Assembly: GCA_964016885.1 (NCBI GenBank) | Contig: OZ024740.1 | Location: 382,912,001-382,976,000 of the forward strand | Reading direction: 5' to 3' | Length of the DNA stretch: 64,000 bases | From: Eledone cirrhosa | Taxonomy: Eukaryota | In this document: one piece after another, positions 7,907-61,742 of the stretch | How the letters are laid out: every line of letters starts with the position of its first letter | How positions within the stretch are numbered: position 1 is the first letter of the stretch | Made by a program: the position numbers and the translations under genes | The notes under the pieces: model-generated | Seen by the model: only the letters and a program-made list of their open reading frames with translations | What the model was told of the DNA's origin: nothing | Database searches by the model: none

Positions 7907-9609
7907 ATATCTATAATTTATAATAAACGAAGCCTAATTTTACATATTTGACTTAATTATCTTACATTACTCCGGAGTAAACAAACCAACCTGCGTACTT
8001 CGTCGAGTGCTCCAATCTGCATACTGAAGAGGTATCGGTAAACAACCAACATATGCTCTCTCTCTCTCTCTCTCTCTCTCTCTCTCTCTATATATATATA
8101 TATATATATATATATATATATATATATATATATATATATATCTGTATTTTTAACCGGTGGTCAATCAATGACAAATATTGATTGCCGAATAAATTAACTA
8201 TGGAGATATAAAAGATACAGAAGCGAAAACCAACAAAAAACAACCAGTGAGTGTATTCTGTTATTATTGCTGTCAATATTATAACAATATGACCCTCCCC
8301 GAGTATAACAATATATATATATATATATATATATATATATATATATATATATATATATATATATATCTATCTATATATATATATATATATATATATATAT
8401 ATATATATATATATATATATATATATATATATAGGTACGAAATCATTTGTTTCGAATATATTGAATATATTAAGGGAAATAAGTACAGGGAGGTAGCTTG
8501 ATATATATAATTGTGTAGATTGAGAGCCAATTCAGTAATCAATAAACAAGGAAACCATTGGCAAGCTATAAATCGGCAAATAACATTATTCCATGGTAAC
8601 TCATTTAATCTTGTTGTCGTGAGTGTTACCTGCCACAACGGGAGCCCTCTGAAATCAACTTCTTAGTGAATTTATATTTTTCAAATCAAACAACTTTGTA
8701 TGTAGGTGAGGGTTAATTTGCATTATTCATACGTTTTAAAAAAGAAATAAGTAATAAACTAACGATTTCACTATAAAATAGGATTTCAATTATATTTTGA
8801 ACCAATATATTACAATAGTATTTCAAAATTGATCATAGCAAAGGCATGAAGTTTGTATGACTAATAATTTATCAGTATTTCTTTCCTTCCTTTGTAATAG
8901 CACGATTTCTGTTATACATATTTCATTGAAGCTGAAATTTATGCTGGTAATTACCTTAAGAACTGCCTGGTAATACATTGTTATTTTAATTAATTTCTCT
9001 ACTTGTAATTCAAATTGACCTTTTCAGAGCATTTTCAGAAGACAGTATCTGTGGCCTATCAATAGTCATGCTTTGGTCAATCGAAGGACACTGCATGCAC
9101 CATTTTTCTACCTTGCATACACCATATTATACATTAATATCCTTTGGAATCAAGTTGTAACATATTTATGTAGGAGGTTGACATATACCATGTCTTCATG
9201 TATTACATTACTTTTGGGTTTTGCAAATAATCAATGATCGTGTTAGATAGTATTTGACTGACCAGTTTATATAATACTTGTATGCAAGTGACTGGTCAAT
9301 ATTTATATAACTATATATATGTTATGCATTGCATATAGCGTTTTATTGTTCTGTGTCATTAAGAAATCTCTTTAACTTATATTTATAATTCACGGGATTC
9401 ATTTCAGCCAGATTGATATAGTTTATCAATGTTTATATATATATATATATATATATATATATATATGTACAGAGAGAGAGAGAGAAATAGAGAGAGAGAG
9501 AGATAAAACAATAAAACTATGCATATATCAGATAAGTAGCACTCAACAGTGGGTAAAACTGGCGTATATATATAGAAGAAATTAAAAGATGGTTAAAAAA
9601 GTTCCATAC

Positions 9610-9677
9610 ATTTTATTATGCGCATTTCGAAAACAACATCATCCTGGGACAAACATTCTGTTCTCATCAGATAAAAT
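9610..9677 (-). ncRNA. Type I minimal hammerhead ribozyme, family B (intact core)
   Basis: AUUUUAU CUGAUGA GAACA...UGUUUUC GAAA UGCGCA UA AUAAAAU; 7-bp stem I and palindromic stem III. Confidence 0.8.
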
Positions 9678-10052
9678 AAGGTAACATGATATGAGGCCTA
9701 AAAACACTTGTGAACAAGAAAGGTGTACAGCTACATATGACAAAAATATAAGAGAAGAGAAAAAGTTGGAAAAATGAAGAAAAGGAAAGAAGAAGGAAAA
9801 GGAAAAATAAATAGAAGAGAAAAAAAGAAAGATAGAAGGAGGAGAGAGGAATCGAAAGGAGAGAGAGAGATACTTCTGATCGGGAAAGCTGTCAAAAATG
9901 ATGGGGTGAATGGGCTAATATTACAAATAGTAGATGTCTACTAGAATATAGAAACTGGGTATATTATTTAATATTGAGTTTTAATATTTTGTCATATGTT
10001 GAATGGACACTTTCTTGTTCATAAGTGTGTTTAGGCCTCAGATCATGTTACC

Positions 10053-10120
10053 ATATTTTATCTGATGAGAACACAATTTTATCCCAGGATGATGTTTTCA
10101 AAATGCGCATAATAAAATAT
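10053..10120 (+). ncRNA. Hammerhead ribozyme, family B, core-mutated copy (GAAA to AAAA)
   Basis: Inverted partner of 9610-9677; CpG-type loss of G12. Confidence 0.6.
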
Positions 10121-10180
10121 ATGGGAACTTTTTTAACCATCTTTTAATTTCTTCTTTATATATATATATAATATATATAT

Positions 10181-10399
10181 AGCGAGGGAAAAGTGGTAAG
10201 GAACCAGGTGGACCATAACGCACCAAAGTACTCAATACTTAGGGTAGTAGAGTGGGGTAATAGGAGTAAGTAAGACCCCGACGGCTGAGCTCAAGCCGTT
10301 TCGACGGCTAATTCTGTACAGAATTAGCCGTCGAATTGGTACAGAATTAGCCGTCGAAAACGGCTTGAGCTCGGCCGTCGGGGTCTTACTTACTCCTAT
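10181..10399 (-). mobile_element. Fold-back repeat family P (palindrome 10260-10399) carrying only the 3' half of a hammerhead
   Basis: GAAAC GGC UUGAGCUCA GCC GUC GGGG-like sequence on both arms. Homologous to 41668-41856 and 46290-46482. Confidence 0.75.
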
Positions 10400-58411: not shown

Positions 58412-58534
58412 TCCAAACGATCGTTTCATTATAAGTTTTCTACACATTGGGAAAATAATGCCCAGGTTATGTAGAAGCCTTACACATAGTCCGTAGGATT
58501 ATATGTAGGTGGGCCCTTATGAATCATCAGTGGA
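58412..58534 (-). ncRNA. Type I hammerhead ribozyme, family E, second unit
   Basis: UCCA CUGAUGA UUCAUAAG...CUUAUAAU GAAAC GAUC GUU UGGA. Confidence 0.78.
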
Positions 58535-59914
58535 TGCCCGACAAATATCGATAAAAAAAACCTTACAGATATTAATGTTCAGCGATGCTACCCCTCCGTG
58601 CCAGAATGACCGCCAAATTTGAAATTCCAGCAGTCTCACAATGAGAAATCTCACACTGCCATCAAGAGAAAAGGGGAGGTCATTGCAAAAAATAAAAAAA
58701 TAAAATAATAGGCACGTGGATCAATTAATTCTTTCAATAATTTTAACCATGCGTGAAGAACTCAATTGGATATAAAATAATAAATATATGCATGTATTAT
58801 TTATACACGCATATAGGTATTTTCTTAGGCTAAAAACAGAGATAAGATATACATATATATAAATATATATAAATATATATAAATATATATATATATATAT
58901 ATATGTATATATATATATATATATATATATATATATATATATATTTATATATATTGTTATACTTTGGGAGGGTCATGTTGCCAATAAGAAACACACGCAC
59001 CCAGTGCTTTCACTTCAATTTATTATAATAAATTTAGGAATTTATAAATTTATAAATTTCTCGTTGGTTGTTTGGTTCCACAACCAGATAGTTGTTTATA
59101 TATTGTCAAAGTTCTTTTGTCACACATTCTGTGACCTCTTCAGTGACTGGGGATTCTTTTCTTTGTTTTTGTGCCTCTCCTTTGTTCTGTCCTGCGCCAT
59201 TTTGTATCTGTGTGTGTGTTGTGTGCTCAGTCTGCGCATGCGCCACATCCGGGTGTCTGTGTGTGTTTATATTCGTTTATTTATTTGTTTATTTACATGT
59301 TACCGGTTGGTTGTTTGTTCTATGTGCGTGTGTGTTTTCATTCAGAAGCGAAATATATATATATATATATAAATATATATATATATATATATATATAAAA
59401 TATATATATATATATATATATATATATATATATATATATATATATATATATATATATATATATATATATATTATTGTTTAAAAAGAACAGAAAGAACAAC
59501 AAAAACAACGCGGAGAGGCAGTATAAAGTGTTAATATTAGGTTCACGCTTGAGAGTGAGGGGGGGGGGGGCGTTTCGAGCATAAGCCTTTCATCAGGGGA
59601 AATTTGGGCAGGAAAAGAGTTCCGAGGTGTGAGGGGGAGTGTGGAAAGACATTAAAAGGGGGGTTTAGAGGGGAAAAAAAATTAAATGAAACAAGGGGTG
59701 AAAGAGTGTGAGGCGTGTAAGGGTAGAGGGGGGAGATTTGACAGGGGGTCCGAGCGGGGAGTGCGGAAGGTGGAATACGTGTGTATGTGTAGGTGTACGT
59801 GTGTGTGTGTGTGGATGTGAATGTGAATAATTTCAAACCTACTCGCTGTTTCGAAAATATTCTTACTTGACATTACAGTCGCTAAGTTTATAGCTTCTAA
59901 TTTGAATGGAAAAA

Positions 59915-59990
59915 GACAGGTGTTGGTGTAAATGGTAACACAGTGGTCCGGATAACCAAAGATGTGAGTTCAACTCCCATGTACGTCAAT
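59915..59990 (+). other. tRNA-like Pol III A/B-box segment within a 265-bp directly repeated unit
   Basis: TGGTGTAAATGGTA...GAGTTCAACTCCC; flanked by ~36-bp direct repeats at ~59827 and ~60092. Confidence 0.5.
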
Positions 59991-60275
59991 ATTCATCTTT
60001 TTCCATTTCTCCGAGGGTTCTTAACCCCACTATCAGGCTAAATAATTTCTTTAATATCTTTAGTCAATATACGGCGATAGCTTACATTTCTAATAATTTC
60101 AAACCCACTCGCTGTTTCGAAAATATTTTTCCATTATATATATATATACCTATATAACAATAATAATAAAAAGGCTGAGGTGTTAAATCTCCATTACATT
60201 TATTGAAGTGAGACGCGCATTTCACGATTGTTCAACTCAAATTTCGTATAGGAAAATCTGCTTCGTATAATCGAG

Positions 60276-60368
60276 ACGTATCCGAGGACCGCGCGATTTC
60301 AGAGTCAGGTTTGATCACCACATCGATCATGCCTCGAGCTGGTCGCCTGAGAAACAATTGTAATATGT
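60276..60368 (+). ncRNA. Hammerhead-like motif, family K, long stem II, CCGAGGA core variant
   Basis: ACGUAU CCGAGGA ...GCGA...UCGC... GAAAC AAUU GUA AUAUGU; followed by CATCGAGTGCT and (TA)n. Confidence 0.6.
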
Positions 60369-61742
60369 CCAATAAATTCCTTTCGTCGCAATACTGATTC
60401 TCTCTTTTCTGTGATATGAGGGCATCGAGTGCTCATACGGCCTACCGTATACGGACGCTTTAAGCATCCAACACCAATTATATATATAAATATATATATA
60501 TATATATACAGATATATAATGATGTTTTACAAAGAGAGGTGGGTGAATTGGTAACGAAATAGACATACTCTAAATCGATCTCTTTCGGGATAGACAACGC
60601 ACACACACAGACACACACACACACATATATATATATATATATATATATATATATATATATGTATGTGTGTGTGTGTTTGTTTGTGCGCATATGCACAACT
60701 TGAACGGAATTAACAAACCAATATTAATAAAAAGTATAGTGCAATGGAGAAATATATGAGTTTAACGCTTGATAAATCGGCAAAGCGTATCAATTTTTTA
60801 GTCTCTCGTCCTTCATCGGAATTCAGAATGAGAAATAAAAGTTAAAAGAGAAAGATAGACAATGAGAAGAGGAATGAATGGAATACATTTTGGGTGAGAA
60901 AAAGCGCTTGTGGTTTCTGTCAGCCATAAATCGTTTATTTCCCCTCTTAAATGATGTTAAAATAAACTGTATTTCTTTTACATAATCAGTTTATGTGTAT
61001 GGAACACGGGGATAACCAGAGGCTTTCTGTAATGAAATTCCTCTACTTGTTTTGACTCAATGATTTAGCTGACAATCAGAAACATAATAAATAGGCTCAG
61101 GAGTTAATACTTCTTTATTTATATTTTTGCGGAAAAAAATAAAATGTATAATGTATTAGCAACAGAGAGAGATAAATGGCTTGTGTTTGTACGGAAGATG
61201 TTGAATGACTGAAACCTAGGGTGAGAAATAAAAAGAGGGGAGGTGAGAGGTTCTTATTGTTATTTTCCTTCAGTTGAAACTAGTTCAGTAAACACTTATC
61301 AAAGTTATTCCATCTATAGCCATTTCACTGTTATCTTTAGGATAAATTAACTAATTTGAGGGAGGTTTTGGTTACTATCTCTGAATGATTTAATGACTAC
61401 ATAGCAACACCCACGTCATGGGAGAAAGAAAATGAATAAGCTCATGTATGGTAATGAGAGATGTTTGATGAATAAGAGAGAAAGTGATAAAAGCGAGCTT
61501 GGGTATGGGGAAGTAATACGGATAAGAGAGGGCGATGAGAGATAGTGAGAGAGGGAGGGGATAGGAACACAAATATTGTTTGTATCTCTGTATGTGTCAC
61601 GGTGGAAAGAAGTGCGTCTCGTGGAAACAATTTGTAAAAGAGGTAGTATTAATCCTATTAGTAGTGTTTAACATAGAGTAGTAGTAGTAATTGCACCAAC
61701 AGTAGTATTTGTAGGCGGAGAAGGTGTCAATGTGTAGGAGTT

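Follow-up and report, generated by a model that had tools for sequence, protein, structure and literature searches.

A short motif, YRTYGAGTRCT, recurs in a 64,000-nucleotide (nt) stretch of the Eledone cirrhosa genome (assembly GCA_964016885.1, contig OZ024740.1, positions 382,912,001 to 382,976,000 of the forward strand; hereafter the window), where it lies downstream of hammerhead ribozymes (HHRs) in several families of short repeat modules and, in a related form, ahead of the open reading frame (ORF) of a Penelope-like element (PLE). What is this motif, and what does it do beside the ribozyme? The original prediction, made from the letters of the window alone, took the families to be unrelated and proposed a common cis signal, such as a core-promoter element, a recognition site for reverse transcriptase (RT) or a splice-donor-like U1 site. 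Here we report that the element is larger than the motif and other than had been reported: as predicted from sequence, it is a set of twin bulged hairpins that coincide with the two insertion ends of PLEs of the Hydra clade. The hairpin stands twice between ribozyme and start codon, and we consider it likely, at a probability of about 0.7, that each copy binds a protein of the element and sets the RT start about 6 nt on its 5' side. Among the three options first named, the RT recognition site appears to fit best.

Motif, coding element and predicted hairpin

All ten motif words listed for the window are present, nine of them as exact YRTYGAGTRCT and the one at 36881 as a TTCT variant; sites on the minus strand are named here by their higher coordinate (9548, 10237, 22566, 28348, 41716 and 50365). 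First-order Markov simulation (100 runs) gave 0.42 on average and at most 3, against the 9 observed, and in the whole (TA)n-rich genome of 3.0 Gb the motif was matched 173,302 times, compared with 10,083 for the reversed pattern. Downstream of a CTGANGA..GAAA core it occurred 31,711 times in the sense orientation (reversed control 15) and 2,766 times in the antisense orientation, so that the enrichment in position and orientation relative to the HHR is present; the antisense cases listed were mostly distinct elements abutting at (TA)n. The statement that the motif always follows a sense HHR holds for families and fails for individual copies. An intact sense core lies upstream at four of the ten sites (8001, 9548, 36881 and 50365) and a decayed one (CCGAGGA at 60282) upstream of the 60423 site, the HHR is reduced to its 3' half at 10237 and 41716, and it is gone from the 5'-truncated copies at 22566, 28348 and 46690. 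Where measurable, the distance from cleavage site to motif is about 42-111 nt, which agrees with the 40-120 nt claimed. A similar word, CCAATTGAGTTCT, occurs with no upstream HHR in another repeat family (window 23951-24913, 46481-46661, 57453-58849 (-)).

Judged from its sequence, the coding element of the window is a member of the Hydra clade of PLEs. Its copy in the window is broken, and intact copies of 712 amino acids exist elsewhere in the genome. An intact copy carries RMRWKA (the RWK motif), DKT, CxCx5C, CxxC and CxH, with CCHH absent as judged by eye; among 121 homologues RW[KR] was found in 117, DK[TS] in 118 (DKG in 1), CxCx5-6C in 119 and CxxC..CxH in 117. A canonical HHR in the pseudo-long terminal repeat (pLTR) and insertion into (TA)n were also found. 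The clade is described likewise in the passages of Craig et al. (2021, PMC8557442) considered here, with a short single ORF, RWK, DKT, CxCx5C, CxxC/CxH and no CCHH, an HHR in the pLTR, insertion into (TA)n, inverted 5' arms and a tail at one end only. An initial Neptune label was dropped, since the protein motifs point to the Hydra clade. Pfam gave no curated match for the coding ORF or its pieces, and no relative was found among viral contigs.

The module families proved not to be unrelated. Their longer copies run into a second hairpin and, in most families, then into a PLE ORF, which marks the modules as 3'-end fragments of divergent Hydra-clade elements and of non-coding passengers; the masters encode homologous PLE proteins, with ORFs 25-45% identical by segment to that of the window in families 8001, 9548, 10237/41716 and 60423. 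The families 36881/46690 (a 1.3-kb tandem unit) and 22566/28348/50365 matched none of 120 homologues and had no stop-free frame of more than 114 codons in the stretches read; both are non-coding and retain the HHR, hairpin 1 and hairpin 2. The 5' regions of the module families can be aligned only at the hairpin strands. The related word reported for the coding PLE, GTCGAGCACT (14081-14091 (-), about 33 nt before the ATG), is indeed there; it belongs to the second hairpin copy and is not the homologue of the module motif, whose positional counterpart at 14214-14237 (-) had been missed.

The motif as first reported is half of the element. It is the 3' strand of a bulged hairpin, conserved and predicted in RNA (RCUC-Y..loop..R-UH-GAGY-RCU), whose 5' partner RCTC lies upstream: in 30 loci GAGT finds its complement in an upstream ACTC, and across a 2-nt bulge the YR of the motif pairs with the bases that follow ACTC. 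A covariance-model scan against Rfam gave no match on the hairpin sites and none at the gathering score (best 150 of 203 matches). The hairpin was then sought in foreign elements that had been fetched by protein similarity alone (90 loci, of which 79 from metagenomes and 11 from contigs of metagenome-assembled genomes (MAGs); 37-51% identity). Of 45 non-redundant foreign ORF starts preceded by 100 nt or more of sequence, 37 show a hairpin in the 160 nt upstream and 23 show a pair of them, while the reverse strand gave 1/45, coding windows 0/360 and the shuffle expectation is 0.09. The distance to the ORF start is 15-58 nt from the end of hairpin 2 and 75-166 nt from that of hairpin 1. Of the Hydra consensi in PMC8557442, as far as displayed, that of Ajap-1, from a sea cucumber, contains the two hairpins, and those of Amil-2, from a coral, and of Ajap-2 contain hairpin 1; the Amil-1 consensus in the supplement stops before hairpin 1. 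Ten 9-letter forms of the motif matched 4 times in Hydra entries of that supplement and 6 times in other entries, none of the latter with the twin-hairpin architecture in the displayed passage. A genome search for double hairpins returned 1,795 matches against 831 in the reversed control (793 on one strand), and 5 of 30 such loci were tandem repeats unrelated to the architecture; for these two reasons the count is not used as evidence. Hydra-clade PLE contigs also turned up in prokaryotic MAG bins with titles of sponge, coral and bivalve symbiont type, most likely as contamination with host DNA.

Covariation was assessed in 86 hairpins from 59 non-redundant 5' regions (48 foreign, 11 from E. 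cirrhosa), which were anchored on RCTC and TNGAGYRC, so that the U and GAG are part of the anchor and the tested pairs were not imposed. The pair above the bulge is Watson-Crick in 76/86 (shuffle mean 47.9) and the next two pairs upward in 48/86 (23.8) and 38/86 (21.8). For hairpin 1 alone, 34 of 39 are Watson-Crick above the bulge, as 18 U-A and 16 C-G (shuffle 18.0). The bottom pair is kept in 82/86 (73 G-C, 9 A-U), and its A-U form, being almost confined to one clade of the E. cirrhosa genome, may go back to a single event; at the second bulge position any base may stand (U 54, C 16, A 15, G 1). The idea that the RCU tail lengthens the lower stem was dismissed, as positions -1 to -3 do not exceed the shuffle level and pairing at -2 is seen in 1/86. 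In a tree of 32 ingroup proteins (7 further regions with short frames were omitted), the pair above the bulge shows 8 changes of both its bases, and 5/5 independent pairs are concordant (p 0.0625, the minimum for 5 pairs). Between elements whose proteins are 36-47% identical, flanks and loops can no longer be aligned, yet the stem persists with compensatory changes. In isolation, the lower stem is predicted to pair in 80/86 hairpins (mean -5.7 kcal/mol). The hairpin of one HHR family has a single-U bulge.

These data bear on the readings of the motif as a core-promoter element, a splice-donor-like U1 site or a 5'-untranslated-region (5'-UTR) element of translation control, all of which would suit the place of hairpin 2, 15-58 nt before the ATG. 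According to passages of PMC8557442, PLE promoters and introns sit in the pLTR, and the coding family of the window has a polypyrimidine-AG before the hairpin 2 bulge. Base-pair covariation speaks against all three, both hairpins are kept in non-coding families, and none of the three predicts the end positions or the arm pairing reported below. For U1 in particular, the variants TATTGAG and CATCGAG have no GT, GAGC forms dominate in foreign elements, and the polypyrimidine-AG is absent from other families. As the motif covaries with an upstream strand and several variants do without GT, the core-promoter and U1 proposals are not supported, and we regard this whole group of explanations as very improbable.

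Insertion ends and pairing of inverted arms

Insertion ends were collected from 664 kb of E. cirrhosa DNA chosen without regard to the motif, window included; in total, about 1.7 Mb of the 3.0-Gb genome was examined. In the 664 kb, 21 of 22 ended copies stop at -12 to +1 nt from a hairpin start (9 at hairpin 1, 12 at hairpin 2), and when more masters were added, 40 of 46 ends fell near a hairpin (18 and 22, respectively). After removal of the (TA)n overlap, 17 of the 22 junction intervals overlap -7 to -5; of the remaining five, three are at -9, -13 and -15, and two had been placed wrongly on divergent references. Ends at a fixed offset 5' of the hairpin, together with the retention of the hairpin in non-coding families, support the proposal of a common cis signal. 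The coding element itself has its last unambiguous base at 10459, 7 nt before the expected start of hairpin 2, and the 60423 module (60282..60478 (+)) ends 4-6 nt before the hairpin 2 of its master.

In three families whose masters had not been seen, this end rule predicted a second hairpin past the long end, and one was found 3-7 nt past it. In the 60423 family, where no hairpin was presupposed, 4/63 copies extend further; each of them meets GCTC 4-6 nt beyond the junction, and two of the four hold a complete hairpin. The master searches for the 10237 (454 matches) and 22566 (106 matches) families presupposed a hairpin and left its distance free; the hairpin stood at one position in 98 of 100 listed matches in each. 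An earlier search for the 10237 master that did not presuppose a hairpin found none among 100 listed of 2,382 matches. When contigs of two runs of unspecified kind were compared with an intact 5' region, no joints appeared; a loose (TA)n end follows position 1354, which is 2-3 nt short of hairpin 2 (at 1357). These contigs are uninformative on splicing or starts.

Most junctions show A/T microhomology with (TA)n, and the families are homologous, both of which would suit a neutral relic of common descent with ends placed there only through such microhomology. Only 50 of 228 microhomology sites lie within hairpin zones, against 40 of 46 ends, and therefore A/T microhomology does not explain the end positions; moreover, a relic would not be expected to keep its stem with compensatory changes while flanks and loops become unalignable. 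The counts from foreign elements, covariation and ends largely refute this reading, which we consider extremely improbable.

Insertions are often two-armed, with the arms on opposite strands and their 3' ends outward. The own-genome loci together hold 80 same-family inverted pairs. In 42 of these a hairpin marks both ends, and the 42 consist of 41 pairs of a hairpin-1 with a hairpin-2 end, one pair of two hairpin-2 ends and none of two hairpin-1 ends, where about 48% mixed pairs would be expected (nominal p 2e-12). The set chosen without regard to the motif follows the one-of-each rule in 7/7 pairs, and in foreign contigs 3/3 close pairs are short plus long; in two foreign distant pairs (1.1 and 3.7 kb apart) hairpin 1 is absent from both arms. 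The coding insertion obeys the rule as well, with its long end at 10459 and its short end at 16229.

Two fixed end sites would also follow if the hairpins defined the 3' ends of RNAs, by cleavage, termination or an exonuclease stop, and two such RNAs then underwent ordinary target-primed reverse transcription from their 3' ends; a structured block beside an end is common. A 3'-to-5' block would, however, keep the hairpin in the RNA, whereas the ends lie 5' of it, and two independent RNAs would give like-like pairs in about half of the cases, against 1/42 observed. In the Poseidon element PAc of Anolis, moreover, initiation is internal, according to parts of Frangieh et al. (2024, PMC11167929). 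We therefore hold RNA-end formation to be improbable.

A candidate start signal for reverse transcription

Under the mechanism proposed here, a read-through transcript would bear a 3' copy of the HHR, hairpin 1 and hairpin 2, and the two hairpins of one RNA would be bound by two protein subunits. Both (TA)n strands would be nicked, and each 3' end would prime cDNA, often with 2-9 nt of A/U microhomology. A start at hairpin 2 would copy hairpin 1 and the spacer and so produce a long end with a tail, a start at hairpin 1 would produce a short end, and the two cDNAs would be joined at their truncated ends to give the inverted pair. The tail would then consist of hairpin 1 plus spacer, which would explain why PLEs have a tail at one end only. 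Because the hairpin used for a start would never be copied into that end, only tandem or read-through copies could serve as masters, and the strict one-of-each pairing of arms suggests that one RNA serves both nicked strands. We slightly favour the view that this constitutes programmed twin priming, in which twin TAR-like hairpins of about 25 nt on one RNA, together with an RT dimer, would provide one start per nicked strand.

How the protein might read the hairpin is a matter of speculation; the bulge (R-U-N-G-A-G-Y against R-C-U-C-Y) could form an arginine-sandwich pocket for the clade-specific RWK. The HIV TAR bulge and 7SK ASM3, as presented in parts of PMC6189040, have a bulged U after a Watson-Crick pair, followed by G-C and A-U pairs, an arrangement that the present hairpin may share; it differs in that its bulge lies on the 3' strand and that two elements flip the A-U pair. 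We take this likeness as resemblance, not homology.

Two internal starts are already known from PAc, where, in the parts of PMC11167929 considered, both target strands are cleaved and extended, the tail lies between the two RT starts, RNA on the 3' side of the start is needed and a dimer is predicted. Genomic copies that end at two fixed sites, by which a tail of PAc type is recognised, are found here as well. The PAc starts differ in lying inside the ORF, in a stem-loop rich in AC; the stretch shown in Fig. S1 of that paper has no RCUC/GAGY hairpin, its passages identify no conserved binding element and no assignment of strands to sites, and on the choice of template this, the one in vitro study, went no further than the hypothesis that a binding motif lies somewhere in 172 nt. 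In the Hydra clade paper (PMC8557442), the main text has 0 occurrences of 'hairpin' or 'stem-loop', and the tail, 30-40 nt there against about 70-100 nt here, is ascribed to resolution by the endonuclease (EN). The tail length found here equals the distance from hairpin 1 to hairpin 2 in masters. The non-LTR retrozymes (bioRxiv 10.64898/2026.07.22.740005) share with the present modules that they are non-coding, HHR-bearing tandem derivatives of PLE pLTRs; in the accessible text a cis signal beyond the HHR is undescribed, and 'hairpin', 'stem-loop' and 'tail' occur 0 times. A full-text literature search, with subscription journals and Repbase notes outside its range, gave no account of this hairpin or of the pairing rule. 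Two start sites were thus known for a Poseidon PLE, and the twin hairpins and the pairing rule were not found in print.

The same ends could also arise at the level of DNA, if the GIY-YIG domain read the hairpin in single-stranded cDNA, in a cruciform or as a GAGYRCTC duplex and trimmed about 6 nt away from it. Penelope EN has been reported to need the tail for recognition (earlier work cited in the part of PMC11167929 considered), tails were ascribed to EN-mediated resolution in PMC8557442 (in part), covariation alone cannot tell RNA from single-stranded DNA, and the eighth base of the palindrome is C in 43/86 hairpins. A duplex palindrome nevertheless leaves the covarying upstream partners unexplained, for PAc the starts were demonstrated to be sites at which RT initiates on RNA (PMC11167929, same passages), and the sense strand has 17 G-U against 8 A-C mismatches, a weak difference. 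We consider DNA-level processing unlikely, and prefer hairpins recognised in RNA.

Several observations weigh against the mechanism proposed here. The strand asymmetry just given reaches only p 0.054, and with 50 nt of context on either side, the probability of lower-stem pairing exceeds 0.5 in only 48/86 hairpins, so that folding may need the protein. A base-triple at the bulge is made less plausible by two foreign elements that flip the third pair (U-A) to GCAC/GUGC. No hairpin descriptor was found in 8/45 foreign 5' regions (some truncated, some variants), and among the six published Hydra consensi, as displayed in PMC8557442, Obim-1 has none and Crog-1 variants only. Of 42 ended matches in foreign loci, 24 were set aside because they were (TA)n-only or matched one reference across families; the 13 ended copies from the same locus comprise 9 that stop near a hairpin (-4 to 0), one at +4 and three elsewhere. 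As to the pairing, 38 of the 80 pairs could not be classed for at least one end (run-on, locus edge or unclassified), and the p values stated are limited in that copies of the same family do not count as independent events. In PAc, finally, no strand difference in RT start was observed and priming needed no homology (parts of PMC11167929).

The 3' stem-loops of LINEs and SINEs and the hepadnaviral epsilon are RNA stem-loops that are recognised by the element's own RT and license copying, of non-coding passengers too; the signal proposed here differs in lying 3' of the start, uncopied and duplicated. In L1 twin priming, two primers on one RNA yield an inversion, whereas here both arms would copy the same region, which gives an inverted duplication. 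The PLE RT is the sister group of telomerase. If true, the present reading would supply the first defined RNA-recognition element of any PLE RT and a general explanation of tails and inverted ends. An element of 20-30 nt with compensatory changes and a fixed offset would make the choice of RNA testable by few point mutants. It would open a way to study how the closest relatives of telomerase RT recognise RNA, and RT-based insertion tools would gain a minimal cis signal. About 10^5 short HHR repeats of the genome would be reclassified as Hydra-clade insertion ends, with a boundary rule.

Features of the window and further repeats

The modules and the coding element are listed in Table 1.

Table 1. 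Ribozyme modules and coding element in the window; hairpins are predicted in RNA.
Feature	Positions	Strand	Remarks
Inverted short arm of 8001 insertion	7639..7804	-	stops before hairpin 1
HHR core to predicted cleavage site	7857..7901	+	long arm of two-arm insertion
Hairpin 1 (ACUC..UC-GAGU-GCU)	7969..8011	+	4 lower and 7 upper pairs; arm reaches microsatellite at 8056
Hairpin 1	9538..9565	-	5' arm mutated to ACGC; behind HHR 9670-9617
Inverted short arm paired with 9548 module	9987..10164	+	stops before hairpin 1
Hairpin 1	10227..10253	-	long arm 10319-10176 ends at hairpin-2 offset; HHR 3' half only
Inverted short arm	10336..10399	+	end 5 nt before hairpin 1
3' pLTR of coding element	10459..10626	-	HHR 10622-10565, hairpin 1 ~10528-10504
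Hydra-clade PLE ORF (RT + GIY-YIG type)	11883..14047	-	broken by frameshifts and stops
Hairpin 2 of coding element (GCUC..UC-GAGC-ACU)	14081..14159	-	ends 33 nt before ATG
Hairpin 1 of coding element (GCUC-UG..CA-UA-GAGC)	14214..14237	-	
5' HHR of coding element	14274..14331	-	
Inverted arm of coding insertion	14332..16229	+	HHR 16143-16199; end 6-8 nt before hairpin 1; tail-less
Hairpin 1 3' strand	22556..22566	-	5'-truncated, decayed copy of non-coding family
Hairpin 1 3' strand, long arm	28338..28348	-	inverted short arm has HHR at 28579 (+)
Hairpin 1	36853..36891	+	behind HHR 36734; copy end ~36922, just before non-coding master's hairpin 2
Hairpin 1, long arm 41796-41655	41706..41732	-	inverted short arm 41796-41856 (+) ends 5 nt before hairpin 1
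Hairpin 1	46662..46700	+	copy truncated just 5' of hairpin; end ~46731, 6 nt before master's hairpin 2
Hairpin 1	50355..50417	-	behind HHR at 50526
Decayed sense-HHR module	60282..60478	+	hairpin 1 3' strand 60423-60433 (5' arm deleted)

The coding family has a donor-like GAG/GTAAT (14263-14275 (-)) just after the HHR cleavage site, and its pyrimidine tract-AG before the hairpin 2 bulge lies at 14090 (-); from their sequence, the two could bound a 5'-UTR intron of this family.

The 10237 family is very abundant, and its full copies have a hammerhead core of TTGAGAA (U3-A8 type). Its short insertions mostly start within stem II and are near-perfect palindromes with the arms joined at one base, and a tandem array of its hairpin-1 units represents a minisatellite born from the tail. 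An older HHR family (window 46825-46969 (-)) carries a decayed hairpin variant, ATTC..TAGAGCG, and many of its copies still stop a few bases short of this variant; 30 loci of the family yielded no ORF. HHR-like cores at 37199 (-) and 59596 (-) have no downstream hairpin. A tandem non-coding retrozyme with a 430-nt unit (12,294 pattern matches; window 18729-19467, HHR 19036 (-)) has no hairpin either, and the hairpin is therefore not universal to HHR repeats. This retrozyme likewise ends at two fixed places into (TA)n, and it may carry the signals of another PLE clade.

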